Below, one piece after another: positions 1 through 22,964 of a stretch of DNA of 32,000 nucleotides. The stretch's first letter is position 1, and every line of letters starts with the position of its first letter. The notes beneath the pieces are model-generated. The model was not told the DNA's origin, ran no database searches, and worked only from the letters and a program-made list of their open reading frames with translations. The position numbers and the translations under genes are program-made. Origin of the DNA: Moraxella nasovis (lineage in GTDB: Bacteria > Pseudomonadota > Gammaproteobacteria > Pseudomonadales > Moraxellaceae); assembly GCF_022701215.1 (NCBI RefSeq), contig NZ_CP089976.1, positions 30,001 through 62,000 of the forward strand, in the 5' to 3' direction.

Positions 1-1619
1 AAACTAGCAAGAGAGGAGCCACCTATCTTATCAAGCAAAGACGATTTTTCTTCAGATTTCACCTTAAGATCGTTTATACCATCCTCTAAGGACCCTTTTC
101 TTTTGTTTAATTTATCAAGTTCATCTTGAGTGACAAGCTCATTAGCTGACCCCTCCAACACGTTTTCAGCGATGTTTGATCTCTCATCAATTTCAGCAGC
201 AACAGCATTGATCATACCGTTTTCATTAACACTATCTACCTCCACTGCATGTTTTGGCTTATATGAAAATTGGTATAAAGCATCTACATCTTCAATATTA
301 CAATTATGGACAGTAACTCTATTGACTCTTGAATGCTCGCCAATATCTGCACCAAACAATTTGTGAGTTACCTCATCTTTAACCATATCTTGGCTTTGCG
401 ATACATCGACAGACTCCCTAATATTAGCCAGACCCTCAACATCTTGATTTTTACTGATATCTTGGTAGGCTTTGGTGCTAAGTTTTGCACTCAAATTCTC
501 TTTTTTAGATGATTTTTGACCTAACTTTGAGGCAGCTTTTTTTACCAAATGCCCTACACCATAAAGCAAATAAACACCGAGTGGGAGCACTTCTTTTTTC
601 TCTTTATGCTCACCTTGCATGATGGGTCTTGTTTTGGGGGCAGGGGACATTAAATACACAGAACCTTCACCCTGCCTCTTATTATTCAACTTCTCATACA
701 ATTCATTTTTTCGCTCAGATATATGGTCAGTAAGAGGATTGTTTGCAACACCCAAATCTTTATCAGCAATAGCATCTCTTTCATCTCCCTGTAAGGACTG
801 CTCTGCCTTATTGTCATATTCCCTCATATTGGCTTGTTGCTCAATATTTTTTTCTTTATTAAAGGTCTTGCTAAAGGACATGGGGACCTCAAGCATATTG
901 CGTCCTTCCCCCTGTCTGATTGCCTCCTCCATCACGCCTGCAAGAGAATCATCTTCAAACCCATATCCGTAATCTTCCATGAAATGAGCTAGCCGAATCC
1001 CACTCTCTTGATTATCCCTTATATACACTTCAAGATTTTTATAAAACTTATCCGCTTCTTGTTTATCTTCATTTTGATCAGCAAAACCAAACCCTCGAAA
1101 ATGATTAAAGTCTTCCCATTTAATCCCTTTTTCACTAATGTGTAATTTACCATTTGAATCACATATGATAAAAGAGTTGATATGGTTTGTGTGTGAAGCC
1201 TCAAGCCAATGCTTGCCATGCTGTTTAAAATCATTTATCAAAGGATTCTTTGCCACTTCTCTTTTAAACTCATCGCGCAAATCATCTAAAAACGTTAACT
1301 TTTGTTCAGGATCCTCTATACTCCTATTAGATTCATACAGATTATGCTTTAAGATTGTATTTGTGATTTTTTTGACATCTTCATGCTTTACATAACCATT
1401 ATCTTGAACGTATTGATAATCAATACCCTGAATACCTTCGCCTTTTTTGCCTAAGGCAATCCAATTAGCAAATTCTATATTTTTTTGAATAAGGTCATAC
1501 TTATCTTGATATTTATCAAGATACTCTTGCTTTTTCCTATCTTTTATATCAAATAACAAATCACCAAAAATATCGGCACGCTCATCACCGTTTTTAAACT
1601 CATTTAAACTGTCTACCAT
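1..1619 (-). CDS. hypothetical protein, >=539 aa, 3' end beyond window start (absent from supplied ORF track)
   Basis: Hand translation of the minus strand from ATG 1619-1617 (MVDSLNEFKNGDERADIFGDLLFDIKDRKKQEYLDKYQ...) stays open to position 3. No tta/cta/tca triplet occurs in that phase (checked codon by codon for 1-660, and by translation of the reverse complement for the rest). A G6 run lies 3 nt upstream of the ATG and is SD-like. The gene starts 33 nt after the stop of 1652..4216 on the same strand. The + strand track ORFs at 130, 619 and 1138 all share one phase, typical of antisense shadows. No recognisable motif (no Walker A). Confidence 0.7.
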   Translation of the reverse strand, partial: MVDSLNEFKNGDERADIFGDLLFDIKDRKKQEYLDKYQDKYDLIQKNIEFANWIALGKKGEGIQGIDYQYVQDNGYVKHEDVKKITNTILKHNLYESNRSIEDPEQKLTFLDDLRDEFKREVAKNPLINDFKQHGKHWLEASHTNHINSFIICDSNGKLHISEKGIKWEDFNHFRGFGFADQNEDKQEADKFYKNLEVYIRDNQESGIRLAHFMEDYGYGFEDDSLAGVMEEAIRQGEGRNMLEVPMSFSKTFNKEKNIEQQANMREYDNKAEQSLQGDERDAIADKDLGVANNPLTDHISERKNELYEKLNNKRQGEGSVYLMSPAPKTRPIMQGEHKEKKEVLPLGVYLLYGVGHLVKKAASKLGQKSSKKENLSAKLSTKAYQDISKNQDVEGLANIRESVDVSQSQDMVKDEVTHKLFGADIGEHSRVNRVTVHNCNIEDVDALYQFSYKPKHAVEVDSVNENGMINAVAAEIDERSNIAENVLEGSANELVTQDELDKLNKRKGSLEDGINDLKVKSEEKSSLLDKIGGSSLAS

Positions 1620-1651
1620 ATACCCCCCAATCAATCAATTTTTCAAAAAGA

Positions 1652-4216
1652 CTAAAAACCCACACCCATATCCAAACTTGTCTCATGATGGGGCTTTTTT
1701 GAGATGGCTAAGTCCTCCCCCAACTTCATACCCAAATCTACATTGTCTACAGTTAAATCACCAAAAGACATACCAGACAAGTCTTCTGTACCTATATAAA
1801 AAAGGGATAAATCTTGCTCTTTATAAGAAAGGGCTAAATCTTGCTCTTTTTTTCTTTCGTACTCAATAATTTCAATATCAAAGCTCAAAAATGGCTTTGT
1901 ACCCAGTGATTCTTGAGGATTTTTAACAAATTGCTCAAATTGTTCAAAATTATTAGCATTTTGTTTATCACTCTTAGGGTCTGGTAGTACCGCTCTTAAA
2001 GAATCATGGGTAGGAAGTGTAATCTGCACTTCAAGGTTATTCTCGTGGGATTTTAAGGCCAACTGCTCATGCACAATCTTCATTTCTTGATCTGCTCGAC
2101 TTTGAATAATATTCTGAACAAGTCTAGAGGCAAATAAATCTACACGCTCACCATCTTTGTCATAGGTGATGGTTGTTGAATTGCCAAACCCTCCTTCTTT
2201 AAGCTGTATATCCGGGTAAATCATCTGGTCCCCCGTATCATAGACAACCACTAATTCAAGTGGTCCTGATGGGGGTGCCAAATTTGGCTTAACAAAGTTT
2301 TCGTGAAATTCCAATGCAAAATTCGCTTCTTTACTGTCTTGCAGTAAATCAACAGGCTTGATACTTGGTTTATCAGTTGGTCTTATCAAAATCTGTATGA
2401 CATTGCCTGGAGTGCCTAAACTCATCTGTGCTTCTTTATTCTCCAAACCTTGTTTTAAAAAATCATCAACCCGCTCATGTGTTTGAGCAATCTCAGGAAA
2501 GTCTTTTTTAAACTCATTGATATAAGCGCGAGACTCCTCCACACTCCAGCCCGTCTTAGCGGACAACCCACCTGCCCCTTGACCGTATAAAGAAGAAATA
2601 ATAAGCACCTTAGATTGCTTTCTTTTTTCCTCAATATCTTGCACAAGGGTGGGGTCGTGGGTATGGGGGTCGTCAAGAATATACCGTATTTCTTTTGCTT
2701 TTTGTTCATCACTAGCGTGCCGAGCAGATAATTCTTTTTTAGCTACCATACCAGAATAAATATCTACGTTTTTCTGTACCATTTGTTGAATGGTTTTTAT
2801 ACCCAAAACATCAGCAGCAGTTCTTACTTCAAGCTGCTGACCATCAAAATCCATTGCAACATAGCCATCTTTAGGAACAATACATTCTTTTGCATTAGCC
2901 GTTAAACCCTGAAAATTTATCTTAAAGGTATCTAAAGGAGTGTGTCTGCCAGTAATTGCTCCATAAGCATTGATAGGTATCGGTATTCCACCTTCATGTT
3001 CTTGAGCCAATGCTTTAAGCTTTACCAAGTTTTGCATGGGGTATGTATAAGCATTGTACGCACTTCTTAATTCAAGTAAGCTTTGAACATAAGACAGTCT
3101 GTTCTTTTCATATTCACTGGCATCATCAGCTAAAGTATATTGCTTTAAAAAGAGCGTTTCTTTTGATTTATGAGAGGTTAGTTTCTCAATATTAGCCGCT
3201 TGACCTGTTTTTTGAGTTAAATCATCAAACCACCTAGGATTAACCAAGGACTCCCCTTGACTGCCATAAGCAGCAAGCAAACTATCCTTAAAAGCTATAG
3301 GGTAGCTAATACTGATTAAATCAGGGTTATCTAGGATAAATTGAACGTTTGCATTAATTAACTTGTGATGATGATTTTTGGTGTGATTTTCAACCAGGGG
3401 ATCAGAACTTGATATTTTTTGAAAATTTAAATGTTTCTGCCTAAAATCTTGTTTTAAAGACAATTCTAAGTCTATAACCTTATCTTGATCCAAGTGCAAG
3501 CAGGGTTCATTGTGTTGCATTCTAGCTATTTGGTCAGAAATAAGACAAGCACGATGAAAAGCCTTGGTTCCAGGGTTATCGTTTTGATTGCCATAAGCAA
3601 AAGGTGCCTCAAAATGTTCCTTCAAAGACAAATAACCCATTGCTAAGATTTTGCCATCAGTATAATTTTTTTGAAATTCGCCAGGGGATACAGACTTTAA
3701 AAACTCATTATCTTTTTTAGTCCTTTCATTTAAAAAATCAACAACAATCTTTTTACCCTGTGTCTGTTCATCATTAAGTAGTTGCTTGACATCCATATCA
3801 TTTATAATAGACAATTCATGTTTTGTTTGAACACTTCTGTTTTTTGCCTCAATGAGTTTTCTTTTAAACAAACTATGTTCAGCAGACAACCTAGAGCCAT
3901 CTCTTGCTGCGAGGGTGGGTAGGTGGGTTGCCTTATATAAATCCTGGATATTTACAAATCTAACTGTCATGTCATCGGGTCTGACACCCAAATAATCTGC
4001 GATATCACCTGGGGTTACATCATCACTGTGCACTAAATGGGTTGCATCAAGTGGTTTGTTGGTAATATCAGCAGTTAAAAAAGACTTTAAAACTTCTATG
4101 TCTGGATCCGCCCTACGAACGGTATTTGTTTTGGAGTCCACAACCCAAAACTCAGGACTTTCATCTTTTAAATCCTGTGTGTTTTTTGGCCAAGATATAG
4201 TAACTACATTTGTCAT
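1652..4216 (-). CDS. divergent family-A (Pol I-like) DNA polymerase domain protein, 854 aa
   Basis: The C-terminal half carries the ordered family-A motifs. TGR: YGAITGRHTPLDTFKINFQGL (aa 418-437; compare TGRLSSSDPNLQNIP). Motif A: VAMDFDGQQLEVR (D458, E463, R465; compare DYSQIELR). Motif B: RKQSKVLIISSLYG (R532, K536, Y544-G545; compare RxxxKxxxFxxxYG). Motif C: LPTHDSL (H737-D738; compare HDE). The N-terminal ~415 aa has no motif I recognise, and no Exo I-III motifs were seen. Confidence 0.65.
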   Translation of the reverse strand: MTNVVTISWPKNTQDLKDESPEFWVVDSKTNTVRRADPDIEVLKSFLTADITNKPLDATHLVHSDDVTPGDIADYLGVRPDDMTVRFVNIQDLYKATHLPTLAARDGSRLSAEHSLFKRKLIEAKNRSVQTKHELSIINDMDVKQLLNDEQTQGKKIVVDFLNERTKKDNEFLKSVSPGEFQKNYTDGKILAMGYLSLKEHFEAPFAYGNQNDNPGTKAFHRACLISDQIARMQHNEPCLHLDQDKVIDLELSLKQDFRQKHLNFQKISSSDPLVENHTKNHHHKLINANVQFILDNPDLISISYPIAFKDSLLAAYGSQGESLVNPRWFDDLTQKTGQAANIEKLTSHKSKETLFLKQYTLADDASEYEKNRLSYVQSLLELRSAYNAYTYPMQNLVKLKALAQEHEGGIPIPINAYGAITGRHTPLDTFKINFQGLTANAKECIVPKDGYVAMDFDGQQLEVRTAADVLGIKTIQQMVQKNVDIYSGMVAKKELSARHASDEQKAKEIRYILDDPHTHDPTLVQDIEEKRKQSKVLIISSLYGQGAGGLSAKTGWSVEESRAYINEFKKDFPEIAQTHERVDDFLKQGLENKEAQMSLGTPGNVIQILIRPTDKPSIKPVDLLQDSKEANFALEFHENFVKPNLAPPSGPLELVVVYDTGDQMIYPDIQLKEGGFGNSTTITYDKDGERVDLFASRLVQNIIQSRADQEMKIVHEQLALKSHENNLEVQITLPTHDSLRAVLPDPKSDKQNANNFEQFEQFVKNPQESLGTKPFLSFDIEIIEYERKKEQDLALSYKEQDLSLFYIGTEDLSGMSFGDLTVDNVDLGMKLGEDLAISKKPHHETSLDMGVGF
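1801..1849 (-). repeat. in-frame 27-bp-period tandem duplication (22-bp core aaaggg[a/c]taaatcttgctcttt x2) in 3' end of polymerase-like gene
   Basis: Cores at 1801-1822 and 1828-1849 are 21/22 identical. They encode KEQDLALSY / KEQDLSLFY in the acidic C-terminal tail. Confidence 0.8.
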
Positions 4217-4345
4217 GATGATACCAGTTGTTGATTTTAGTTTATATTACAAATGTGGAGTGGAGGGGTTGATAGCACTAACAAGCCGTCTAGATTGCAA
4301 AAAGCAAACCCGTGCAGCACCATATAGGGGCTAGTGTACAACACG

Positions 4346-4367
4346 GCTTGCCAATCAGCTTGCCAAT
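4346..4367. promoter_or_regulatory. direct repeat GCTTGCCAAT x2 (12-bp period) in divergent intergenic region
   Basis: gcttgccaat ca gcttgccaat lies between the polymerase operon start (4216, -) and ORF 4528 (+). It is a possible protein-binding site; function unknown. Confidence 0.3.
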
Positions 4368-4512
4368 TACCTAAATTCAGTTTATACTATTAAATATAAC
4401 TTAACACTATTTTAAGTTAGTGTCAATTCTGAATAACCAGATTAAGGTATTGGATTCATGTCTAATTCCCCGGCTTTAAAAATCACTCATTTTTTTTCAT
4501 CAATATAGAAAA

Positions 4513-4557
4513 ATAATATTTTTAATATTGTTAATATTGTTAATATTGTTAATAATA
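4513..4557. repeat. 9-bp tandem repeat TTAATATTG (3 perfect copies at 4522-4548 plus degenerate flanking copies)
   Basis: The sequence reads directly as taatatttt ttaatattg ttaatattg ttaatattg ttaataata. It overlaps the annotated TTG start of ORF 4528. Confidence 0.85.
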
Positions 4558-5031
4558 TGTGTAATTTTTATAGCTTACCAACTGCTATCCGAACCAAAAC
4601 CTCGAACTTATAGCGACTATTTTGAAACAGCTGATGAGGTTATTCTGATTGAGGAGTCAGCCACAAAAATATCTGGCGCATATTCAGGTCTCGAACATCA
4701 AATGGGAACCGAAGCTTATGAAGCATTGGTATTAGGAATTCCTGTCAGTCCTGAAAGTGAATTTTACAAAACCCAGCAGCAAACGTTTGGGTCGGCTATC
4801 AACGAGGCAAAGCACGCAAGTAGTGTTGTTGCTGAACACGAAAGTCAAATTCAACAAAAGGGCGGGCTAGTTGATTTAAATGATCTGCAAAGTTTTGATA
4901 CAGGACGAGTTTTAGATCCTGAAACGAGAAAATCGATACTGAGTATGACAGGTGAGTCTACCAGCATCTCCGAAACCAAGGTTGAAACTGAGGAATCGGG
5001 TGAAAATAGAATTTTAGCCTCACAAGATTGA
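4528..5031 (+). CDS. hypothetical protein (possible N-terminal membrane anchor); start uncertain
   Basis: 167-aa ORF. The N-terminal hydrophobic stretch MLILLILLIICVIFIAYQLL is translated from the 9-bp AT-rich repeat, so it may be artefactual. The first in-frame ATG is at codon 59. No recognisable domain. Confidence 0.4.
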   Translation: MLILLILLIICVIFIAYQLLSEPKPRTYSDYFETADEVILIEESATKISGAYSGLEHQMGTEAYEALVLGIPVSPESEFYKTQQQTFGSAINEAKHASSVVAEHESQIQQKGGLVDLNDLQSFDTGRVLDPETRKSILSMTGESTSISETKVETEESGENRILASQD

Positions 5032-5195
5032 GTGGACTAATAATTGTAAAAAAAAATCCACCTAGCGGTGGTCGATAAGCTATGAGTGCGAAAACCATAG
5101 CAATGTTTGACAAATTTACAAAAAGCGGGGGGGGTTTTAGGAAGGGTTTGGGCAAACATCGGCTAACTCACGAGACGAGCTTACTAAAATTATTT

Positions 5196-5335
5196 GTCAT
5201 ATTTGATAGTAAAATTTGCGTCAATCCGTCATATTTTAGCGTCAATCTTTATTTAAATAAAAATAATAAAATATTCTTTTTTTTTATTTTAAAAAAATAA
5301 TTTAAAACAATTATTATTCTTTAATTAAGGGCCTT
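5196..5335. promoter_or_regulatory. oriV-like region: iteron-like direct repeats followed by an extreme AT-rich tract
   Basis: GTCATATTT occurs at 5196 and 5228. GCGTCAATC occurs at 5218 and 5239 (21-bp spacing). About 85 bp that is almost pure A/T follows (5248-5330), immediately upstream of the Rep_3-like gene. This is the layout typical of iteron-type theta origins. Confidence 0.4.
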
Positions 5336-5342
5336 TGTTTTC

Positions 5343-5373
5343 CTTGACAAGTCAAGATAGGCGGTGCGACAAT
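5343..5373 (+). promoter_or_regulatory. putative rep promoter with perfect palindrome CTTGAC-AA-GTCAAG overlapping the -35
   Basis: TTGACA at 5344-5349, an 18-nt spacer, then GACAAT at 5368-5373 (4/6 match). The palindrome at 5343-5356 is a plausible autorepression operator. The promoter overlaps the GTG at 5364, which argues for the ATG at 5409 as the start. Confidence 0.4.
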
Positions 5374-5408
5374 ATCACGCTCTTCCTATTTCTAACAACC
5401 GAAAGATC

Positions 5409-6638
5409 ATGACTATCCAAGACTTCCAACCAACCCCAGAAAGACTATCCAAGCTAGAAGAAAAGATGGCAGCTTATGATTCTTCTTCTGAACAGCAAAT
5501 AGATAGAAGATCTTACTTTGAACTTGCTATACAACAAATTATGGAAGAAGAAGAACAAAAAGTAGCTGCTAAACCTTCAGACCCCGTAGACATACTTTAC
5601 AATTCTTTGTTTTCAAAAAAAGAAAACAGCCCATCACCACTCCCCCCAAAAGAACAAATCAAAGAAGAAAACAACAATAATCCCATATTTCAATCACCAA
5701 CATCCTTTAAAAAAGAAAAATATGAGATTATTCTGATAAATAGATTTTTACATGCTTTGACTGGTTTATCCAGTATTCAAAGAAAATATATAACTTTTTT
5801 CGTTTCAGTTAATAAAGAATTTTTTAATAACAAAAAAGAATTATTATATTCTTTTAATATTAAAGCAGAGCAATTTATATTTTCTTGTCAAGAAAATATA
5901 AACGAAAGAAATGTTGAGCGGACTTACCAAGAGTTATCTGAAATAACCGAATCTCTTCTTCAAAGATATTTTCATCATAAAGAGTGTTTGCTTGAAGATC
6001 GACCAGTCACAGTAAGCACTTCATGGATTGTCAGCGCCTGTTTTTCAAAACAAGATCATTCTATAGTTATTACAATTTCTCATGAAGTGGCACAGCTACT
6101 AGACACTTTTAATAACTATTCATTTTTTAACAATGATCATAAAAATATATTATTTGATTTAACCGGGCACTCGGTGTTGTTGTTTGAGCTTGTTATAAGA
6201 AACTTAATACAAGGACACACACGAGTTAAGATGAGTATTGATTATTTAAGAGAGTTTTTCGATTGCACACATAGCTACTCTAATGTCTCAGATTTTAAAG
6301 CTTATGTGATTGATAAATCCATTAGTGAAATAAGCCAAAAAACATCACTTAGTATTACTTACACACAAGAAAGAACATCTCGAGTGGTGACGGATTTACT
6401 ATTTACCTTTCAAGATAGAAATGCCACAACCCAGCATCCCAATCAAAATACATCAATTGGGGTGTTAAAAACGCCTGAGGTTGGGTTTTCTATGACTGAA
6501 GATGATCTTTATCTATATTCTCAAAAAATTGCAGCAGCTTTAGATAAAACAGCTCAACAAGTAAGATTAGAACTATTAGACCCCCTTCAACAAAAACAGC
6601 ATATTCCTTTTTTAAAACTACTGGGATATAAATTCTAA
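5409..6638 (+). CDS. plasmid replication initiator, Rep_3 (RepB/iteron-binding) family-like
   Basis: Rep_3-like layout: INRFLHALTGLSSIQRKYITFFVS ... HSVLLFELVIRNLIQGHTRVKMSIDYLREFFDC..YSNVSDFKAYVIDKSISEISQKTSLSITYTQERTSRVVTDLLFTF (compare the conserved ...Y..f.dfk.rvl.pai.Ein..t.l.v.y...k.gr.v..l.F). It has a ~110-aa low-complexity N-terminal extension. The track ORF begins at GTG 5364; the ATG at 5409 is preferred. Confidence 0.65.
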   Translation: MTIQDFQPTPERLSKLEEKMAAYDSSSEQQIDRRSYFELAIQQIMEEEEQKVAAKPSDPVDILYNSLFSKKENSPSPLPPKEQIKEENNNNPIFQSPTSFKKEKYEIILINRFLHALTGLSSIQRKYITFFVSVNKEFFNNKKELLYSFNIKAEQFIFSCQENINERNVERTYQELSEITESLLQRYFHHKECLLEDRPVTVSTSWIVSACFSKQDHSIVITISHEVAQLLDTFNNYSFFNNDHKNILFDLTGHSVLLFELVIRNLIQGHTRVKMSIDYLREFFDCTHSYSNVSDFKAYVIDKSISEISQKTSLSITYTQERTSRVVTDLLFTFQDRNATTQHPNQNTSIGVLKTPEVGFSMTEDDLYLYSQKIAAALDKTAQQVRLELLDPLQQKQHIPFLKLLGYKF

Positions 6639-6655
6639 ATCATCTAAGCGTTAAA

Positions 6656-6692
6656 AACCCACTAATAGAAAAAAAATAGTGGGTTTTTTTTT
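6656..6692 (+). terminator. rho-independent terminator after rep
   Basis: Stem aacccacta (6656-6664) pairs with tagtgggtt (6677-6685), followed by a T-run. Confidence 0.7.
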
Positions 6693-6930
6693 ATTTTTAA
6701 AAAAAATTACAAAAGTTTACAAATATTTTTAATGAACGATTCTTCGCTATGACTGCTGATAATCGTTTACTATTGTTTAGTTTTTTCTAATTACACTATT
6801 GACAAAAACTTAATTATATTTTATTGTTAGTTTGTGTTGTAAGTATTGTTTACACAACTTTCAAAATAAGGTAGTGGGCTATACTCAACTCAACCAATCC
6901 TTAAATAAGGCCTATTTCAAGGTGTAGATT

Positions 6931-7347
6931 ATGAATGTAAAAAATAAATTAGAGCGTATGACACATGTTACCAATCATACCGTTACAAAGCTATGGGTAC
7001 TAGCGGCATTATTGCCTATGACTTTAGTTGCACGTGCCCAATCTTCAAATAAAAAAAATTATCTGGATCAACTTGCAGATGCAAATGGCGTCAATTTAAA
7101 TAAAAATGGCTCTATTACTAATTCTCTGAATGACTTTAAGACATTTGGTACATCCTTTTTTGAAATTGCAGCAATCGCTGCTCTATTAGGCGGGATTCTC
7201 TTTGCCATTATTAGCCTTGTTAATATCATCACAAAAGGCAAAAATGGTCAGCCTACCGGTCCTTATTGGTGGAGATTATTAGGTGCTATAGGTATGGTAT
7301 ATCTTGTCTATGTTAACTTTGTTAGCAAAGCAGCATCAGGTGGCTAA
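6931..7347 (+). CDS. small membrane protein: signal-peptide-like N-terminus plus two TM helices (VirB2/TrbC-pilin-like or holin-like topology)
   Basis: The N-terminus KLWVLAALLPMTLVARA|QSS contains an AxA motif. Hydrophobic segments are FFEIAAIAALLGGILFAIISLVNII and WWRLLGAIGMVYLVYVNFV, separated by the short loop KGKNGQPTGPY. The C-terminus is glycine-rich (ASGG). The call rests on topology only, with no sequence-level family match. Confidence 0.6.
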   Translation: MNVKNKLERMTHVTNHTVTKLWVLAALLPMTLVARAQSSNKKNYLDQLADANGVNLNKNGSITNSLNDFKTFGTSFFEIAAIAALLGGILFAIISLVNIITKGKNGQPTGPYWWRLLGAIGMVYLVYVNFVSKAASGG

Positions 7348-7374
7348 GTTTCAAACTAACACCAAGTTCAAAAG

Positions 7375-7509
7375 CTGTTCCTTAAAACCTAGCTAAACCT
7401 ACCTATAAGGTAGGTTTAGCGTTTAATTTACTTCAATGTTGTTTGCCTTATTTATTTAAACTTGGACTTAGCAACTCCATAGGCGTTTTTAATTGGGGAT
7501 AAAACTTAC
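7375..7509 (-). repeat. inverted repeat copy A (135 bp), solo IS-end (RE/omega-RNA-like) sequence
   Basis: It aligns to the reverse complement of 10739-10875 with 8 mismatches and one 2-nt indel (hand alignment). It contains a perfect 12-bp-stem hairpin, ctaaacctacct-ata-aggtaggtttag. Confidence 0.9.
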
Positions 7510-7559
7510 TAGCTGTTGATGATGGTATAGATTTTTCTGAATTTAAGGCAGGTTCTCCG

Positions 7560-8519
7560 ATGTTAAAATTGACAGAACAGTCACCAAAACACATCATTGA
7601 GACAATTGCCAATTCTAGATACGGCAATCCTACATGGGATCAGGCAAGAATGAGTTTAAATTCAAAAGGTTTGATGAGCGAATATCTCATGATGGATGCT
7701 CAAGAAAACTTCATCCGCCAACAAACAGCTATCGTACGACAAAGAATAGAGGCAGTATTGGCAGTCATTGGTAACGCTAATTTAGTTGAGTTTGGTAAAA
7801 AAATTCAGGCTATGCAGGTAACGGCGGAAGCTGGAAAAGTGCCGACTGTTATTGATTTACAGCTGGAGGCAGGTGGTGATGAGTATGTTGACTCAGGTTA
7901 TTGGTCGCAAGGTGGAGCTGGAGATGGTGCTGAATGCACACCAACTGCAAATGACGGTAAATCGACTTCAGTTGCTGTTAAAATGTCGGAAGCGATATTT
8001 ATGGGTGATAGCCTAGCAGAAGCTTATCGTGCCGATGCAAGATACGCAAAGCGAGGAAGAAATCCAAGCCAAGTATTGAGTTATCTTAAAAACGCAGGAG
8101 ATCTAAAAGGAAAAACAGTTGTAATTTCTACCGGATTAAGTAATAATATTAAAGACATTGCATCTGTTGAAAAACAAATGCAATATTTAAGTCAATCTGG
8201 TGCAAATGTGGTTGTACTTGGGATTGTTGATAATTTTAAAAATGACATACAGCTTGCAAGCAAAACCAATGCATTTTTATCACAACAAGCGTCAAAGTAT
8301 GGTTTTGGCTTCCAAAGGGTGGGAAATTGGCAGCGCGGTGATGAAGCTTATAAAGCTCACCCGAAAAATTTAACAGAAAGTCAGTTTGTTAGGGCGAGTT
8401 CTAACACGGGTGTATCCACTACATCTTGTGAAAATGTTTCGCATGAGAGTGCTCCGTACACATCAGGAGCGGCACCCAAAGGCTTTACGCCTGATAAAGC
8501 TGAGGTTATTAAAAAGTAG
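7560..8519 (+). CDS. hypothetical protein with GDSL/SGNH-hydrolase-like motif; probably the upstream part of a frameshifted gene continuing to 8941
   Basis: Contains FMGDSLAE (GDSL block I) and ISTGLSNN (a block resembling G-x-N). The frame is open upstream to 7503, abutting repeat A, so the gene may be 5'-truncated. It ends at TAG 8517-8519, right after an A5 run. Confidence 0.6.
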   Translation: MLKLTEQSPKHIIETIANSRYGNPTWDQARMSLNSKGLMSEYLMMDAQENFIRQQTAIVRQRIEAVLAVIGNANLVEFGKKIQAMQVTAEAGKVPTVIDLQLEAGGDEYVDSGYWSQGGAGDGAECTPTANDGKSTSVAVKMSEAIFMGDSLAEAYRADARYAKRGRNPSQVLSYLKNAGDLKGKTVVISTGLSNNIKDIASVEKQMQYLSQSGANVVVLGIVDNFKNDIQLASKTNAFLSQQASKYGFGFQRVGNWQRGDEAYKAHPKNLTESQFVRASSNTGVSTTSCENVSHESAPYTSGAAPKGFTPDKAEVIKK

Positions 8520-8941
8520 CCGCTAATATTGGGGCTAATCCTAACGATTTAGCAGCTGTGATTTCCTTTGAGACTGGAGGCACATTTTCTCCTTCTATAA
8601 GAAACCCAGGGTCGTCAGCTACAGGTTTAATCCAATTTATGAAAGGATCTGGAGGAACTAAAGGGCTTTATTATGGCATGACAAGAAATCAATTTGCGTC
8701 TTTGAGTTTTAATACTCAAATGATCTATGTAGAAAAATATTTTAAAGAAAGAGGTTTTAGAGCCAATAAACCACAGAACGTCGCAAACCTTTACACAACG
8801 GTCACTGGGTATGGTTACAAACGTGGCTTCAAAGCTTATGAAAAAAATAAAGTATGGGATAGTAACCGTGATGACTATATAGCTAAAGGTGAGATGGTAA
8901 GAAACGCTGCCTTTAGAGCACATCAGAAAAAATATTTTTAA
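8513..8941 (+). CDS. SLT/lytic-transglycosylase-like domain (track ORF starts GTG 8558; frame open from 8513)
   Basis: KVAANIGANPNDLAAVISFETGGTFSPSIRNPGSSATGLIQFM matches SLT hallmarks (catalytic E-[ST], then A-x-GL-x-Q). Conserved-looking residues lie upstream of the GTG. There is no SD and no ATG, and the frame is -1 relative to 7560..8519. Confidence 0.6.
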   Translation, partial: KVAANIGANPNDLAAVISFETGGTFSPSIRNPGSSATGLIQFMKGSGGTKGLYYGMTRNQFASLSFNTQMIYVEKYFKERGFRANKPQNVANLYTTVTGYGYKRGFKAYEKNKVWDSNRDDYIAKGEMVRNAAFRAHQKKYF

Positions 8942-8957
8942 AAAAAAGAGGTCTTTT

Positions 8958-9341
8958 ATGAAAGTTTTAGCATTGACATTGGCTTTAGCAACCATGGTGG
9001 GGATGTCTACATCTGCACAAGCACATGATGATCCACGAAAAACAAGTGAATGCTATCTGTTTAAAAAAGACAAAGTGCTCAGCAAGGGTCGTTGTACCGT
9101 AGATAGTGGTGCTGGAGCTGGTGGGTCTTGGACAACAATTTCCTTTCGTGGTAAAAAATACCATTTTGAATATATTGATGAAATAGAATCGCCAAATAAT
9201 CAAGAACAAACGTCTTATATACGGGACAGCAAAATCCTGAAAATCATCAAAAACCCGCAGAATATGACTGCAGAACAAGCCGATAATCTACTATTTTGTG
9301 ATATATCGGGTAGTCAGCATATATGTTACAAGTCAGCTTGA
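8958..9341 (+). CDS. secreted/periplasmic protein of unknown function, 127 aa, 4 Cys
   Basis: Sec signal peptide MKVLALTLALATMVGMSTSAQA|HD. SD agagg lies 6 nt upstream. The gene starts 16 nt after the SLT-like ORF. Confidence 0.65.
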   Translation: MKVLALTLALATMVGMSTSAQAHDDPRKTSECYLFKKDKVLSKGRCTVDSGAGAGGSWTTISFRGKKYHFEYIDEIESPNNQEQTSYIRDSKILKIIKNPQNMTAEQADNLLFCDISGSQHICYKSA

Positions 9342-9390
9342 CTTCACTAGGAAAAATATATGATATATATCTGCCGCACCCCCTAAAGTG

Positions 9391-9615
9391 AGGGGGTATC
9401 GAGTTGATGAAAAATTTACAACCCAAACTTGTTCGTGCTGTAGCACATCAGCAACAGCAGCCCCAAAGGTAGAACAGGTCTTAGAATAGGAGTATGGACT
9501 TGTGGTACTTGTAACACCACGCATGACAGAGATGTCAATGCAGCCAAGAACATACTCCGTCTGGGACGTTAGACGCTCGCTGGAGGAAGCTCCTTGCTTT
9601 AGGCAGGGGAGTACG
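9391..9615 (+). pseudogene. tnpB: tnpB (IS200/IS605-family OrfB) 3' remnant, frameshifted, plus adjacent right-end/omega-RNA-like hairpin
   Basis: Two frames read RGYRVDEKFTTQTCSCC / HISNSSPKGRTGLRIGVWTCGTCNTTHDRDVNAAKNILRLGR* (stop at 9570-9572). This gives the TSQTCS..C and C..C...DRDVNAA.NI zinc-finger/RuvC-III hallmarks. The downstream hairpin is ctccttgc-tttag-gcagggag. No N-terminal part and no tnpA are present. Confidence 0.75.
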
Positions 9616-9670
9616 TCAATTAATCTTAACATACTATTTAATATATTTAAAGTATCATCGGAGGGATGTT

Positions 9671-10336
9671 ATGAAGCAGGGTTTTGCAAAATTATCTTTG
9701 GTGGCTTTTGTGCTTGGTGCTGTTAGCACGCCTGCATTAGCTGCGGTGGATTGGACACCATATCTTTTGGGTATGACAGACAGCTGTAACCAGAGGCCTC
9801 TTTTTGAAGTATTTGAGAATCCACGCCAGTATAAAGCTGTCAAATCAAGTATTATAAAAAGAACTAAAAAATCCAATGCTGATTATCATGCTGATGTTTA
9901 TATATATCATTTAAAAAATGCCACTGCTTTTGGTATTCCTATTACAAAAATTGAAAAGTCAGACCATCATGAAGCAAACTATGTACGAGTTTATTTTGCC
10001 AATGATTCTATGAAAAAATTAAAAAATAAATTTGGGGTATTAGTTGGTGATAATATCAAACACATCGGAGAAGAAGGGATGTGGTTGGTGAAAGAAACTG
10101 GTGATGGAAGTTATTATACACCGCAAAAGTTTCCATATTCTTATGCTAAAAAATATGGGTTTGTAGGTGGTGGTGATGACGCTTGGGAAAAGCAAGCTAT
10201 GTTTTATGATGCCTATGGCGCGGGTGTTGTCTATGTTATTGATAAAAACAGTTATGATGTGAGCTATGCTGATTTTGGGGGTGGTGCTTATTTCACCTTT
10301 GACGAGAAAACCCGTAGCATCGAGTGCGCTCATTAA
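9671..10336 (+). CDS. secreted protein of unknown function, 221 aa
   Basis: Signal peptide MKQGFAKLSLVAFVLGAVSTPALA|AVD. A strong SD (ggaggg) lies 5 nt upstream. No recognisable domain. Confidence 0.65.
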   Translation: MKQGFAKLSLVAFVLGAVSTPALAAVDWTPYLLGMTDSCNQRPLFEVFENPRQYKAVKSSIIKRTKKSNADYHADVYIYHLKNATAFGIPITKIEKSDHHEANYVRVYFANDSMKKLKNKFGVLVGDNIKHIGEEGMWLVKETGDGSYYTPQKFPYSYAKKYGFVGGGDDAWEKQAMFYDAYGAGVVYVIDKNSYDVSYADFGGGAYFTFDEKTRSIECAH

Positions 10337-10615
10337 TAAATAATTTGTCATTTCTCTAGCCCGCTAAGATCCTTTTACTCCTATGTAGATGGTATCACAG
10401 TGGATCTTTTTGTTCGTGTACTACACCAATGCTGTATAGATGGTTGATGAGATTATCACTAGCGATAAGCTGGTGATCAGTTTTAGAGCAAATGGCAGCT
10501 ATGCTACACTGTTCTTTAGCACGCATTTGAATGGTCGGAGCTAAAAACTAATACTTGTAAACCTGTCTAAAACTATTTAAAATAATGCAAATGGTAAAAG
10601 AAACCCAATGATTAG

Positions 10616-10723
10616 AGGTCATGTTATCCGACTTGCCCCAACTGTCAAACACACCATGACCGTGATGTGAATGCCAGTATAAATATTTTAAATCAAGCAG
10701 ATAAGGTTTTAACTTTATCTTAA
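10616..10723 (+). pseudogene. tnpB: second, different tnpB 3' remnant (last ~35 codons only)
   Basis: Reads RSCYPTCPNCQTHHDRDVNASINILNQADKVLTLS* (stop at 10721-10723), matching the C..C...DRDVNAS.NIL motif. A stop lies immediately upstream at 10613, so only the tail survives. Confidence 0.65.
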
Positions 10724-10738
10724 TAAAAATCTTGGTGG

Positions 10739-10875
10739 GTAAGTTTTATCCTCAATTAAAAACGCCTATGGAGTTGCTAAGTCCAAGTTTAAATGAATAA
10801 GGCAACGAGCATTGAAGTAGGAATTAAACGCTAAACCTACCTTATAGGTCGGTTTAGATAGGTTTTAAGGGACAG
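10739..10875 (+). repeat. inverted repeat copy B (137 bp), right end of the decayed tnpB element
   Basis: It begins 15 nt after the tnpB-remnant stop, the position expected for an IS200/IS605 right end (omega-RNA scaffold). It is ~93% identical to the reverse complement of 7375-7509 and ends 8 nt before the LysR start codon. Confidence 0.85.
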
Positions 10876-10883
10876 TGTAAGAT

Positions 10884-11762
10884 ATGTTAGATAATTTACG
10901 CCGCATGATGATCTTTGTTAAGGTGGTAAACAATGGTTCTTTTGGTGCAACAGCTAAAGAATTAGGTACCTCGACAAGTGCGGTTAGCCAGCAAATTACT
11001 CTTTTAGAATCATATTTTGGTGTATCATTATTGCATCGTTCAACCCGCAAACTTAGCATGAGTGAAGCAGGAGAGATCCTTTATGAAACTGCCTTGCAAA
11101 TTATTAAAATTGCCGAACAAGGTCGAGATAGCATAAGCCAGCTCAAAGGCGGTCTTTCAGGAAATTTACGTATTGCCACATCTCCTGAAATCGCCAAAAC
11201 CTATCTTATTCCTGCATTGGATGCGTGGCTAAGAGAATATGAAGATTTGTCTTTAACTTTCATATTTCATGATGATCATCTTGATATGATTGAAGACCGT
11301 ATTGACTTGGCTTTAACTTTAGAAGAAGAGCCTTTGGGTAAGCCTTTGACGACTGTAAAACAACTGCTTTTAGCGTCTCCAGGCTATATTGATGGTCATG
11401 ACGTCATTAAAGAACCGCAGGATTTAGCATCACATGCTTTTATTGCTCATGGAGATAAACAAAAAGAACGTCTAGAATTTCAAAAAAATAATAATAAATT
11501 TAGTATTCGTATACCACCTCGTCTTGCAAGCAACGACCAATCTATTGTACTTAATTTAGCGGTGGCAGGACATGGTATTATTAAGACAAATGAAATTGAT
11601 GCTAAAGCATTTATAGAATCTGGAGAGCTGATCCATGTATTGCCTGATTATCAATTACCAAATCTCACACTTGGTGCATTAGCTAGTAACCAAGACAAAT
11701 CGTCTATTCGAGTAGAAAGATGCATTGAGCTTTTGAGAGAATTCTTTAGTGAAAAATCTTAG
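10884..11762 (+). CDS. LysR-family transcriptional regulator
   Basis: N-terminal wHTH FGATAKELGTSTSAVSQQITLLESYFGVSLLHRSTRKLSMSEAG, with a ~200-aa substrate-binding-type C-terminal domain. Confidence 0.85.
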   Translation: MLDNLRRMMIFVKVVNNGSFGATAKELGTSTSAVSQQITLLESYFGVSLLHRSTRKLSMSEAGEILYETALQIIKIAEQGRDSISQLKGGLSGNLRIATSPEIAKTYLIPALDAWLREYEDLSLTFIFHDDHLDMIEDRIDLALTLEEEPLGKPLTTVKQLLLASPGYIDGHDVIKEPQDLASHAFIAHGDKQKERLEFQKNNNKFSIRIPPRLASNDQSIVLNLAVAGHGIIKTNEIDAKAFIESGELIHVLPDYQLPNLTLGALASNQDKSSIRVERCIELLREFFSEKS

Positions 11763-12056
11763 TTTATTTTTTTTGAAGATTAGGTGCGGTAAACATTATT
11801 TAACATAATATACATTATGCGAAGTATAACTAACCAGTTTGGGCGGATAATTTCAAATCTGATTTTTGATGATTATTTCAAATAAATAAAGCTTTTATTA
11901 TAGATAGATTTGGCTAAGTATGGATTTTGGTTTGTTATTTATGGTTGCATGATTTAGCCTTGATAAATTTGATTTTTTTTTATAAGTTTGTATCGCTGTT
12001 CATGATAAACTTATAAAGACATAACGACTTTAACGATTTTGCTATATTTTACATAA

Positions 12057-12090
12057 TAAAAAAACCAAGGCGTTCACCTTGGTTTTTTAT
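12057..12090. terminator. bidirectional-looking rho-independent terminator (serves the minus-strand kinase gene)
   Basis: Stem aaccaagg (12063-12070) pairs with ccttggtt (12077-12084). It is flanked by an A-run and a T-run. Confidence 0.7.
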
Positions 12091-12158
12091 TTCACTAAAT
12101 GACAACTTACCAAAATAAGCCAGCACCAACAAAGCCACCCACATCAAATACCTGCTCG

Positions 12159-13430
12159 TTAGACAAGCTTAAGTAAATCTAGCCGCCTATCTTCAAACAG
12201 ATCCATCTGGGGAGCAAGTACCGTCATAAAGCGATCAAAATACAGCAGCTGCTTTAGCAGTAAGGCAAAATCTCGTGGGAAATGTATGCCGTGGCGTTTA
12301 CCAATCTCGCTAAGCTCTAGCATAAGCTTATTTAGACTGTCGGTATGAGTGGCTTTATCGGCTGATCCTGTATATACCTTGCCCAGCAGGCTACTAAGGT
12401 CAGTCGATAAGCGATGTACATCCACCTGAGCACTACCATGTGTCATGCCAATGTCAATCATTGCCTGTGCCATCTGATGGTAGTTATTTGCTTGCATGGC
12501 TTGAACAAGGATAAAACAAGCGTTTAGGCTTTTTGGGTCAATTTTCCCTACAAGCCCAAAATCTAAAAATCCCACACGCCCATCATGAGTGAGCATGACG
12601 TTACCAGCATGTAAATCGGCATGAAATTCACCTGTCATCATTAGCGATAAAAACCATGTATCTAGTACAGTAGACATCACTGTCTTTGGATCGGCAAGCC
12701 CATGCAAACCATCATCTATAAGAGAGATACCTTCTAGCAAAGACATGGTTAACACCCTTTTGGTGCTAAATTGTTCATAGACTTTGGGTGTAATGACAGT
12801 GTTATTTTGCGTCTGATGTAAAAAGTTAGCAAACCGCCTTAGGTTTTCGCTTTCTGCGATAAAGTCAGTCTCTGCCATCATGCGTGTACGAATCTCATCA
12901 ATGATAGGAGCAAGATTGGCAAGCTTCATTGATGGCACAAGCTTCTCTGCTGCCCAAAATGCACCATGAAGCACGCCAAGATCGGTGGCGATAACCGTGC
13001 CAACATTGGGCTTTTGAATTTTAATAGCGACCTTCTCGCCTGTGCGTAATACTGCCTGATGCACCTGTGCGATACTTGCCGATGCTAAAGGCTTAGGATT
13101 AATACTCTCAAAAATCGCACTCGTATCACCAAGCTCATCTGTTAGGACATCTTGGATAACGCTAAAGCTGACAGGCGTGGTCTGATCTAGACAGTCGGCA
13201 AATGCCATCACATATTCACGAGGGAATATAGAAGGCGTACTTGCGATAAATTGCCCAAGCTTAATGTAAGTAACGCCAAGCTTTTCAAAGGTCTGTTTAA
13301 GCAGCTCGGCATCTGCCTTTTCGCCCTTTGCCACACGCAGCATGGATAGCCCTGCTACGCTGACAGTTTTTTGGAGTCTTAGGGCAGAAGTTACGCCTGT
13401 TTTGGCAAGTTTTAAGGGATTTAATTTCAT
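12159..13430 (-). CDS. ABC1/AarF/UbiB-family atypical protein kinase
   Basis: Motifs LGQFIASTPSIFP, ASIAQVHQAVL..GEKVAIKIQKP, HADLHAGNVM and FLDFG. At 423 aa it is shorter than canonical UbiB. Confidence 0.8.
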   Translation of the reverse strand: MKLNPLKLAKTGVTSALRLQKTVSVAGLSMLRVAKGEKADAELLKQTFEKLGVTYIKLGQFIASTPSIFPREYVMAFADCLDQTTPVSFSVIQDVLTDELGDTSAIFESINPKPLASASIAQVHQAVLRTGEKVAIKIQKPNVGTVIATDLGVLHGAFWAAEKLVPSMKLANLAPIIDEIRTRMMAETDFIAESENLRRFANFLHQTQNNTVITPKVYEQFSTKRVLTMSLLEGISLIDDGLHGLADPKTVMSTVLDTWFLSLMMTGEFHADLHAGNVMLTHDGRVGFLDFGLVGKIDPKSLNACFILVQAMQANNYHQMAQAMIDIGMTHGSAQVDVHRLSTDLSSLLGKVYTGSADKATHTDSLNKLMLELSEIGKRHGIHFPRDFALLLKQLLYFDRFMTVLAPQMDLFEDRRLDLLKLV

Positions 13431-13443
13431 AAGAATGTCTTTA

Positions 13444-22320: not shown

Positions 22321-22964
22321 CTATCTTTTAAGACCGCTCGCTGATAGGCTTCTCGGCTTTCACAGCGTTCTTGCCATTCTTTGATGCTTTGTGACTGCAT
22401 AGGTAGGCTGCTTGAGTTTTGCATGGCACTGATGGCAAAATGCACTTGGATATCTGCCGCACTAAACACATCACCTGAGACATAGTCTTGATTTTGTAAG
22501 GTCTGATCAAGCAGTGATAGGCTATTTGTGATATTATCGTTTAGATAAAGCTTTTCTATTTTTTGCTGAATTTGCTTGGTGATAGGACGCACAAAAAATG
22601 GCGATTGCGTGGTAATTTTATCAAACACAAGTCGCATGACAAGGTTTGGCATAAGCGACCCTTCGGTAAAATGCAACCAAAAGCAAAATTGCTCCCACGT
22701 CTGATCATCGCTAGGTTTTAGTTTGTGAGTTTTATCATAATGGCGAAGTAAATATTCTATGATAAATCCAGATTCTATCAGCGTCTTTTCACCATCGGTT
22801 AAAATGGGAGCTTTACCCATAAAGTGGGTTTTTTGCATCGCTTTTGGTGCAAGATAAGACTTGGTACGAGTATGCTTGACCAACGTATATGGTAAACCTA
22901 ACTCTTCTAGCAACCAAAGAATCCGAAAAGATCGTGAGTTATTTAAGTGGTGTAAAGTAATCAT
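22317..22964 (-). CDS. glutathione S-transferase family protein
   Basis: N-terminal thioredoxin-like GST fold signature MITLHHLNNSRSFRILWLLEELGLPY, ~215 aa. Confidence 0.7.
   Translation of the reverse strand: MITLHHLNNSRSFRILWLLEELGLPYTLVKHTRTKSYLAPKAMQKTHFMGKAPILTDGEKTLIESGFIIEYLLRHYDKTHKLKPSDDQTWEQFCFWLHFTEGSLMPNLVMRLVFDKITTQSPFFVRPITKQIQQKIEKLYLNDNITNSLSLLDQTLQNQDYVSGDVFSAADIQVHFAISAMQNSSSLPMQSQSIKEWQERCESREAYQRAVLKDS

Follow-up and report, generated by a model that had tools for sequence, protein, structure and literature searches.

A rare family-A DNA polymerase, encoded beside a Rep_3 initiator in an AT-rich island of Moraxella nasovis, heads a transfer operon in related loci

The DNA studied here is a 32,000-nucleotide stretch of the Moraxella nasovis chromosome (assembly GCF_022701215.1, contig NZ_CP089976.1, positions 30,001 to 62,000), hereafter called the window. 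Its first 12 kb or so form an AT-rich island in which the gene of a family-A (Pol I-type) DNA polymerase lies close to that of a Rep_3-family replication initiator. The polymerase gene is followed on its own strand by a gene for a large acidic protein, which runs off the left edge. Divergently from them, and in this order, come genes for a small membrane protein, the Rep_3 initiator and a pilin-like protein, a block bounded by relics of an insertion sequence (IS), and a LysR-family regulator (Table 1). A first-pass annotation of the sequence had proposed that initiator and polymerase together make up a novel replication module. Here we show, by comparison with related loci, that the polymerase has a closer tie to DNA-transfer genes than it has to the replication initiator, since wherever the sequence extends far enough the polymerase heads a tightly packed transfer operon.

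Assignment of the polymerase open reading frame (ORF) to family A was upheld: the DNA_pol_A domain scored above its cut-off, and phrog_17 and the NCBIfam Pol I models also matched, the phage polymerase families of PHROG and the NCBIfam models doing so only locally. Its product and the NCBI entry 'DNA polymerase [Moraxella nasovis]', whose gene lies on a 2.03-Mb contig, are 100% identical. DNA_pol_A was above cut-off in all six family members that were aligned (best E = 4e-24), and all six retain motifs A (D..LE.R), B (R...K.......YG) and C (HD). The N-terminal domain of the protein is exonuclease-like but degenerate; the polymerase core (residues ~370-760) follows, and the C-terminus is an acidic, disordered tail. 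Residues R424, D458, E463, R532, K536, Y544, G545, N702, Q705, H737 and D738, among others, are invariant in the six sequences. We take them to be the equivalents of Klenow R668, D705, E710, R754, K758, Y766, N845, Q849, H881 and D882, presumably acting as the primer-terminus Arg of the TGR motif, the motif A Asp, the Glu steric gate, the Arg, Lys and Tyr of motif B, the minor-groove Asn and Gln, and the His-Asp pair of motif C. Since these catalytic residues are invariant, the protein very probably works as a DNA-dependent DNA polymerase. In most members motif C is HDS, not HDE. No DxE exonuclease motif was seen in the first strand or conserved in the family, DNA_pol_A_exo1 being marginal in one of six members (E = 0.043), and a 5'-nuclease domain is absent.

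A sequence search of the PDB with the polymerase gave no match. An AlphaFold model built from the six-sequence alignment had a mean predicted local distance difference test (pLDDT) score of 56, with the core at 65-85 and the N-terminal domain and tail at low confidence, and it matched the KlenTaq and Bst large fragments best, with a Foldseek probability of 1.00 (E ~1e-6). Residues ~770-854, in an acidic tail of about 95 residues, are predicted to be disordered. The tail is unconserved except for a short hydrophobic motif present in every lineage, as QDLSLF at residue 801 of the window protein and as DLLSLL, DLDMF, QLFSF, DFDFLL, DFDFSIL or DLLSVL elsewhere. It resembles the beta-clamp-binding consensus, QL[SD]LF, and is possibly a clamp-binding motif. 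In the window copy a 27-bp duplication doubles the motif (EQDLALSY / EQDLSLFY).

The polymerase family is rare. An exhaustive HMMER search of 1.84 billion representative proteins returned 21 matches, five of them true relatives (P0002-P0006), which have 817-949 aa, the full architecture and 18-30% identity. When the polymerase was run against 5.8 billion proteins by way of a word index, it was its own only match, and the family-alignment version of that search was swamped by ordinary Pol I. The polymerase is absent from the PLSDB plasmids and the INPHARED phages, a tblastn search of PLSDB was also empty, and the polymerase of a second lineage found only remote Bacillus PolA genes in PLSDB. Literature searches returned no description of such a polymerase on conjugative plasmids, and among the proteins that a survey records as accompanying conjugative DNA there are primases but no family-A polymerase.

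In all, eight lineages were distinguished: the window; L029 (Moraxella sp. ZJ142, the 240-kb contig JBHJHR010000004.1); L030 with L034-L037 (the L034 contig being 55 kb); L038; L048; L031; L032 with L039-L043; and L033. They came from the HMMER relatives, two through the membrane protein described below, and one (L048) from Joint Genome Institute (JGI) metagenomes with a narrower polymerase alignment, the six-lineage alignment being too divergent to seed a metagenome scan. Contigs L030, L033 and L038 are too short to judge the presence of Rep_3; L038 stops at the polymerase gene, and the downstream ORF of L030 is cut by the contig end. The polymerase is 20-30% identical between lineages whose transfer proteins are 45-58% identical, and the fast divergence of the polymerase and of the acidic protein downstream fits exposure to host-plasmid conflict.

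The large unknown, which had been noted at first pass as an ORF of at least 539 aa, indeed stays open to the window edge and starts 32 bp downstream of the polymerase gene. Its product has a net charge of -24, no Walker A motif, no match above threshold in Pfam, PHROG or NCBIfam, and no relative in the searchable genome collection. An ORF of 590-820 aa occupies the same position in every lineage in which the sequence continues (seven of eight), and in the loci whose coordinates were read (L029, L031, L032, L035 and the window) 2-32 bp separate the polymerase gene from the next one. The window protein is collinear with, but only marginally similar to, the 628-aa protein of L029 (E ~1e-3); otherwise the downstream proteins are barely or not alignable between lineages, and they share no conserved Walker A motif, a single pattern match being confined to the L029 protein.

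Beyond this ORF, the five lineages with long downstream sequence continue with a series of proteins of ~450-570, ~500, ~190, ~390 and ~430 aa, which share 25-78% identity across lineages. Pfam, PHROG and NCBIfam gave almost no matches to some 25 neighbouring proteins. Comparison with plasmids was more informative. Operon proteins of L029, L031, L032 and L048 are 23-46% identical to proteins of the Moraxella osloensis megaplasmid pNP7-1, the two best-conserved ones at ~39-46%, and the 440-aa protein is ~30% identical to that of Acinetobacter plasmids of ~130 kb. The homologous operons of pNP7-1 and of the Acinetobacter plasmids continue to a DotA/TraY gene, and PLSDB types one of the latter, pF19-10-CH6, as conjugative, MOBP and mating-pair formation type I (MPF_I). 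On the other side of the module L029 carries pilin-like genes, a 1076-aa ATPase weakly resembling VirB4/TraC and a TraG/TrwB coupling protein (TraG-D_C). Because the operon is homologous to those of DotA/TraY-bearing plasmids and L029 has these type IV secretion system (T4SS) neighbours, the polymerase family is, as judged from protein homology, that of a lineage of type IVB-like (MPF_I, DotA/TraY) conjugative plasmids.

Other genes were noted in these operons. A gene for an HU-like DNA-binding protein lies inside the transfer operon of L032 (14485-14775) and L048 (16677-16949), the two copies being 50% identical. The homologous operon of a polymerase-less Acinetobacter relative (L045) encodes a 1986-aa strawberry-notch protein and LPD1 'polyvalent' proteins, with umuD and a Y-family polymerase gene nearby; these DNA-handling or anti-defence genes (7882-13842, 21195-24929 and 38314-40109) occupy the region where the polymerase sits in the lineage studied here.

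The small transmembrane protein of the first-pass annotation was also recovered. It is 28-48% identical to the ORF that adjoins the polymerase gene in L029, L030, L031, L032, L034 and L048, and such an ORF adjoins the polymerase in all seven lineages with usable upstream flank. The upstream ORF of L033 runs into the end of its contig and can barely be aligned. At 28-56% identity among lineages this is the best-conserved protein of the module. Its profile found six clusters only among 5.8 billion proteins, each encoded beside such a polymerase, and found nothing in the metagenome scans or in 2.9 million viral contigs. The structural model has a transmembrane helix followed by long helices. The window protein is devoid of a basic N-terminal segment of ~35 aa found in all homologues, and NCBI annotates only 109 aa of it (LU293_00255, a locus number that would put about 50 genes ahead of it). 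The TTG start of the window ORF lies inside the 9-bp tandem array, which encodes LILLILLI; the gene may be 5'-truncated or phase-variable. Of the repeat arrays that had been described in the divergent intergenic region, the 9-bp array and a 12-bp doublet were found, but no iteron-like family. In four lineages the membrane-protein gene is followed by a gene for a 270-310-aa protein (L031 1895-2827; L034 10607-11416; L038 3321-4154; L048 3035-3865), 28-41% identical, with weak matches to staphylococcal nuclease (E = 0.001-0.08); it is absent from the window.

The Rep_3 gene was likewise confirmed, with matches to Rep3_C, RepM_Acin (2e-22), RepE (3e-9) and phrog_4402. The RepM_Acin, RepE and phrog_4402 alignments cover residues 131-392; Pfam Rep3_N was not detected in the window protein and was detected in the Reps of L031 and L034. 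Translation likely starts at ATG 5409 rather than GTG 5364, because a promoter-like site (5344-5373) overlaps the GTG, and the gene looks as if it has its own promoter and terminator. Rep_3 proteins encoded by plasmids of Moraxella, Psychrobacter and Acinetobacter share 27-28% identity with the window protein. A scan for 16-mers found no family of three or more copies (up to three mismatches) in any intergenic region of the window, so that classical iterons are absent. Among relatives, iterons lie upstream of rep in L031 (22-bp repeats, ~6 copies) and L034 (32-bp x 2.5 and 21-bp x 2). The five independent assemblies of the L032 lineage (L039-L043) all end ~145 bp upstream of rep, which suggests that a repeat array (iterons) in this place breaks short-read assemblies.

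A Rep_3 gene lies 0.9-8.5 kb from the polymerase gene in four of the six lineages with upstream flank, namely at 1.1 kb in the window, 1.7 kb in L031, 0.9 kb in L032 and 8.5 kb in L034/L035. None was found within 10 kb in L029 or in the 4.5 kb of upstream sequence of L048. Closeness in four of six lineages makes the pairing real. Position and orientation of Rep_3 relative to the polymerase nevertheless differ in every lineage, and in L034 an IS607-like element and genes for a YadA adhesin, an OmpA protein and an HNH protein lie between the two. Part of this is cargo (L034/L035 11512-17713), made up of an IS607-like pair (TnpB and a serine resolvase), a YadA-type trimeric autotransporter adhesin and a BamE/OmpA-domain gene; an adhesin-like ORF was seen in the same hub region of L048.

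The Reps linked to the polymerase are 24-43% identical to one another, which is no more than they share with the Reps of ordinary plasmids. The Rep of L031 is 52% identical to those of 6.3-6.5-kb Psychrobacter plasmids and 24-42-kb Moraxella bovis plasmids, all without this polymerase; since its closest Reps belong to polymerase-less plasmids, such initiators work without the polymerase. In our reading Rep_3 is an ordinary, exchangeable initiator that neighbours the polymerase through backbone layout and is not its obligate partner. The expectation that the genes of the island recur together elsewhere held: the polymerase recurs with the large ORF (seven of eight lineages), the membrane protein (seven of seven) and Rep_3 (four of six). 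Because the polymerase occurs neither in PLSDB nor in the phage records, a Rep_3 plasmid lineage with its own family-A polymerase is unusual.

Table 1. Features of the island in the M. nasovis window (positions are those of the window)
Feature	Position	Strand	Evidence or remark
Large acidic unknown, at least 539 aa (5' part)	3..1619	-	Open to left edge of window
Family-A (Pol I-type) DNA polymerase, 854 aa	1652..4216	-	Pfam DNA_pol_A 51.3 bits (cut-off 34.3)
27-bp tandem duplication in polymerase tail	1795..1849		Tandem Repeats Finder, 2.0 copies, 92% match; codons ~790-807
Divergent intergenic region between polymerase and membrane-protein genes	4217..4527		12-bp doublet, promoter-like sites
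12-bp doublet GCTTGCCAAT(C/T)A	4346-4369		Repeat search
9-bp array TAATATTGT x 4.6	4514..4554		Overlaps start of membrane-protein ORF; not an iteron array
Small single-pass membrane protein, 167 aa from TTG start	4528..5031	+	Homologues beside polymerase; model
Rep_3-family initiator	5364..6638	+	Pfam Rep3_C 57.3 bits (cut-off 21.1), 1.8e-15
Pilin-like small membrane protein, 138 aa	6931..7347	+	34% identical to 134-aa ORF of L029
Left inverted-repeat arm, 135 bp, IS-end-like	7375..7509		Perfect 13-bp-stem hairpin 7392-7420
319-aa ORF	7560..8519	+	Matches to pNP7-1 M23 protein and M. bovis plasmid
Lysozyme/transglycosylase-like fragment, 127 aa	8558..8941	+	phrog_4928, phrog_196 (C-terminal part of baseplate hub), phrog_21656
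Two small proteins, 127 and 221 aa	8958..10336	+	Apparent signal peptides (read from sequence); first matches phrog_18806
TnpB (IS200/IS605-type) TNB zinc-finger relic, 35 aa	10616..10720	+	PF07282 E = 5.1e-7, 30.2 bits (cut-off 26.3)
Right inverted-repeat arm	10739..10875		Ends 8 nt before LysR start; hairpin 10830-10858
LysR-family regulator	10884..11762	+	Pfam HTH_1, LysR_substrate; GC3 0.249

The gene after rep had been called pilin- or holin-like, and the presence of such a membrane protein was borne out, with a homologue beside T4SS genes in L029, where the 134-aa ORF stands in a block with the VirB4-like ATPase and the TraG coupling protein. Judged from the sequence, the window protein would begin with a signal peptide and has two hydrophobic segments towards its C-terminus, and it probably belongs to a T4SS. 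Its gene is the only candidate MPF_I gene within the window. The cassette between IS relics proved to be a 3.2-kb block with 135-bp inverted repeats that are 94% complementary, and with a TnpB relic. Both arms hold a near-perfect hairpin with a 13-bp stem. No intact transposase and no Rfam match was found in the block, and the arms could be a TnpB guide-RNA/right-end region or a derivative resembling a miniature inverted-repeat transposable element (MITE).

Within the block, the 319-aa ORF resembles, over residues 4-140 (~40% identity), part of a 678-aa M23 peptidoglycan DD-metalloendopeptidase encoded by pNP7-1; a 130-kb M. bovis plasmid has an ORF that is likewise ~40% identical to the N-terminal part of the 319-aa ORF. 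A giant phage protein family is matched by the centre of the 319-aa ORF, where a GDSL-like motif can be read. The 319-aa ORF and the lysozyme-like 127-aa ORF lie in different frames, 38 bp apart, and are probably one split, pseudogenised gene for a T4SS-associated cell-wall hydrolase. The two signal-peptide proteins that follow could be immunity-like or lipoprotein partners. As the 319-aa ORF matches proteins of pNP7-1 and of the M. bovis plasmid, the block is probably DNA of the element rather than foreign cargo.

The claim that the island is clearly more AT-rich than its flank was confirmed by windowed composition. GC content per 1-kb window was 0.362 +/- 0.030 in the island and 0.422 +/- 0.019 in the core (Mann-Whitney p = 4e-9), GC content at third codon positions (GC3) of the genes was 0.23-0.31 as against 0.34-0.45, and the tetranucleotide distance to the core was 0.29-0.41 for the island and 0.10-0.14 for core segments. 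By composition, positions 1 to ~12,100 are foreign DNA. From 12,159 on, core chromosomal genes follow: UbiB, ThiF/MoeB, a PrmC-like methyltransferase, superoxide dismutase, UbiA, YfiH, RluD, BamD, DnaG and GyrA. The right end had been placed at the IS repeat just before the LysR gene. The repeat does end at 10875 and the LysR ATG is at 10884, but the compositional boundary lies ~1.2 kb further right, at ~11.8-12.1 kb. It falls between LysR and UbiB because the GC3 of LysR groups with the island; on composition, LysR is probably island cargo rather than core. Its best plasmid match (43.7% identity) is on the same 130-kb M. bovis plasmid that matches the 319-aa ORF. Two hairpins stand between LysR and UbiB at this boundary (11964-12032, and a terminator-like one at 12059-12088).

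That the island is accessory DNA was supported by 28 related Moraxellaceae loci with the conserved PrmC-ThiF-UbiB block, in all of which the island is missing next to the block and LysR is absent beside UbiB. These loci diverge immediately past UbiB, the closest being only 71% identical in UbiB, and such distance leaves the insertion site and att sites beyond definition by synteny. No integrase, tRNA gene or direct repeat was found at the right end of the island, Rfam and tRNA scans of the window gave no matches, and searches with the island and the polymerase, at the DNA and protein level, gave no matches among the PLSDB plasmids and INPHARED phages.

The polymerase and its downstream ORF have remained long and intact in spite of the AT-rich DNA. 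In L029 the pilin-like genes are followed by small proteins, the VirB4-like ATPase and the coupling protein; in the window the pilin-like gene is followed by the IS-bounded block and then LysR, and no homologue of the ATPase or the coupling protein was found anywhere in the 32 kb. Since the ATPase side has been replaced or cut and iterons are absent, the window copy is probably neither self-replicating nor self-transmissible. In our view the island is a plasmid that has integrated and whose right side is truncated.

Taking these observations together, we tentatively favour, short of calling it probable, the reading that the island is the right-hand end of an integrated, partly decayed conjugative plasmid of the Moraxellaceae and that its polymerase is dedicated to conjugative DNA synthesis. 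A plasmid of a rare lineage would have integrated in the M. nasovis chromosome and then decayed in part. The backbone of this lineage would comprise an exchangeable Rep_3 initiator (with iterons in free relatives), the small membrane protein and the polymerase at the head of a type IVB transfer operon; in the window, the side due to carry the VirB4-like ATPase and the coupling protein would have been replaced or cut at the block bounded by IS relics. The polymerase, if catalytically active and dedicated to the DNA synthesis of conjugation, would make the incoming single strand duplex in the recipient or else make the replacement strand in the donor. It would extend RNA primers in the manner of Pol I, possibly held to the host beta clamp by its tail motif, and would correspond, as a polymerase, to Sog and TraC1, plasmid primases that accompany the DNA.

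Several points weigh against this reading. Its link between polymerase and transfer comes from the shared operon, which is suggestive only, and translocation of the enzyme is argued by analogy. No relaxase was seen anywhere in the loci and no origin of transfer (oriT) was seen. Most operon proteins belong to no recognisable family, and the term type IVB rests on the homology to DotA/TraY operons, the PLSDB typing and weak VirB4 and TraW-like matches. Activity of the polymerase could be reduced, given the HDS form of motif C, and clamp binding is something we infer from the motif. 'Truncated' holds for the right side of the island only. Finally, the proximity of Rep_3 in four of six lineages is more than we would expect if genes were placed by chance on plasmids of 50-240 kb, which leaves room for some role in replication.

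That last point leads to the proposal of the first-pass annotation, under which Rep_3 would melt the origin and the plasmid's own polymerase, rather than host Pol III or Pol I, would carry out initiation-proximal or complete replication. We regard it as unlikely. The two genes are 0.9-8.5 kb apart in the window, L031, L032 (five independent contigs) and L034/L035, no annotated rep stands upstream of the operon in the polymerase-less pNP7-1 (~1 kb inspected) or pF19-10-CH6 (>45 kb inspected), and the catalytic residues are intact, all of which speaks for such a module. In the theta replicons ColE1, ColE2 and pAMbeta1, which depend on host Pol I, a Pol I-type enzyme can act at plasmid origins, and this precedent also counts for the module. 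The linkage, however, is too variable: rep changes place and orientation in every lineage, cargo separates the two genes in L034, and L029 has no Rep_3 within 10 kb of the polymerase. Nor do the linked Reps form a dedicated clade, since the L031 Rep shares 52% identity with Reps of 6-kb plasmids and the linked Reps only 24-43% among themselves. No helicase, primase or processivity gene lies near the polymerase, which itself lacks a proofreading domain. Its gene points the same way as the transfer genes and lies 2-32 bp from the next one, whereas the window Rep has an apparent promoter and terminator of its own, and the window copy is without iterons. The first-pass proposal was thus borne out in part: the genes do recur together, but a functional module of Rep_3 and polymerase was not supported, given the variable linkage, the fixed place of the polymerase at the head of the transfer operon, a Rep closer to polymerase-less plasmids, and the lack of a helicase, a primase and window iterons. 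A complete plasmid-encoded replisome was rejected for want of helicase, primase and clamp genes, and a self-synthesising element like pipolins or casposons, which use family-B polymerases and integrases, was rejected as neither is present here.

A role outside both replication and transfer, in which the polymerase would be an accessory enzyme of repair, translesion synthesis, mutagenesis or anti-defence comparable to UmuDC/MucAB, kept for the survival of plasmid or host under DNA damage or host defences, appears improbable. Absence of proofreading motifs would suit such an enzyme, as would its very fast evolution, a pattern typical of conflict-related genes, and the related Acinetobacter MPF_I plasmid does carry umuD, a Y-family polymerase, strawberry-notch and LPD1 proteins in and around the same operon. 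Cargo of this kind is usually patchy, however, and the polymerase keeps the same place and the same partner wherever the flanks are adequate. It has also kept residues needed for faithful, template-directed synthesis, the equivalents of the E710 steric gate, R668, N845 and Q849. We know of no family-A polymerase in a plasmid repair or anti-defence role, and this want of precedent speaks against it as well. Very improbable, in our judgement, is that the island is a phage or phage-plasmid remnant and the polymerase a phage replicase; a phage-plasmid remnant had been raised as an alternative at first pass. PHROG polymerase families (phrog_17 and others) do match the polymerase, ORFs of the IS-bounded block hit phage families too, among them the C-terminal part of a baseplate hub protein, and remote PolA genes were found on some Bacillus plasmids of ~60 kb. 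The matches in the block, though, are to cell-wall hydrolase domains, which occur in T4SS-associated proteins as well, and the neighbours of the polymerase are T4SS genes. No gene for a capsid, terminase, portal or tail protein was identified in the window or in those related loci that were scanned for families, 50,697 phage records gave no match to DNA or protein, and the membrane-protein profile was empty in 2.9 million viral contigs. Without virion or packaging genes and without matches in the viral collections, this alternative found no support.

Conjugative plasmids are known to bring primases, single-strand-binding proteins and error-prone Y-family polymerases. As far as we know, those of Gram-negative bacteria rely on host polymerases. 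The element type found here, an MPF_I conjugative plasmid with a Rep_3 replicon, is already known; a polymerase of this kind on such an element appears to be new. It is possible, though we hold it with reserve, that type IVB plasmids exist with a conjugation polymerase of their own, made in the donor and perhaps exported along with the transferred strand, as the primases Sog and TraC1 are, which would copy the incoming strand without the machinery of the recipient, or, in another version of the same idea, that replication from a Rep_3 origin employs the plasmid's own polymerase. If true, a conserved family-A polymerase in the backbone would be a new class of plasmid establishment or replication enzyme, and would raise the question of whether complementary-strand synthesis after conjugation is always a host function. 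The polymerase would then stand for a very deep, almost unsampled branch of Pol I, with 8 lineages among ~15 billion predicted proteins. As a compact Klenow-like enzyme with no exonuclease and with an unusual insertion and tail, it could also interest enzymologists.

Among known systems, ColE1, ColE2 and pAMbeta1 have a host Pol I-type enzyme that extends the first primer and have no Rep_3, and at the locus studied here no origin that requires the polymerase is evident; to our knowledge, such extension of the first primer is the only established part that family-A polymerases play in replicating plasmids. The ordinary plasmids of Moraxella, Psychrobacter and Acinetobacter with Rep_3 and iterons (6-42 kb) share the initiator family, with iterons upstream of rep as in L031 and L034, but carry no polymerase, and the window copy differs from them in being chromosomal and without iterons. 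With Klenow, KlenTaq and the Bst large fragment the polymerase shares the palm, fingers and thumb core, motifs A, B and C and the TGR motif, and in Taq and Bst the N-terminal domain is likewise exonuclease-like but inactive. Identity to the Pol I large fragments in structural alignments is nevertheless below 15%, and the window enzyme differs from Pol I in having no 5'-nuclease domain, ~80 extra residues between motifs B and C, a disordered acidic tail of ~95 residues, HDS as motif C in most members, and in being encoded by a mobile element.

The closest relatives of the operon are the MPF_I plasmids of the Moraxellaceae (plasmids like pF19-10-CH6 of ~130 kb from Acinetobacter baumannii, and pNP7-1 of 272 kb). 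They share proteins of 389, 440, ~500 and ~540 aa at 23-46% identity, a DotA/TraY gene after the operon core, and M23-type hydrolases and TnpB elements nearby. Unlike the lineage described here, they are without the polymerase and its membrane partner (a profile built from seven polymerases was empty in the pNP7-1 region, L044, as was the tblastn search of PLSDB), their operons are headed by large hypothetical, strawberry-notch or LPD1 proteins, and no Rep_3 is annotated in the stretches inspected. A functional likeness may lie in the IncI1-type plasmids (R64, ColIb-P9, pESBL), which also have a transfer system of the DotA/TraY type and also place an enzyme of DNA synthesis inside the transfer region, directly before a tra block. 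Their gene order is TraK-Nuc-SogL/S-TraL...TraQ, with sog directly before traL-traQ (PMC4288162). In them the enzyme is the Toprim primase Sog, without detectable sequence homology to the family-A polymerase, export of the latter would be a matter of analogy, and the replicon is RepZ/IncI instead of Rep_3. The nuclease gene nuc, which precedes sog, may be compared with the weakly nuclease-like 270-310-aa protein of four polymerase lineages. RP4 provides, in its TraC1 primase, a precedent alongside Sog: both enter the recipient together with the DNA and prime replication there, in the case of Sog synthesis of the complementary strand (PMC5512222).

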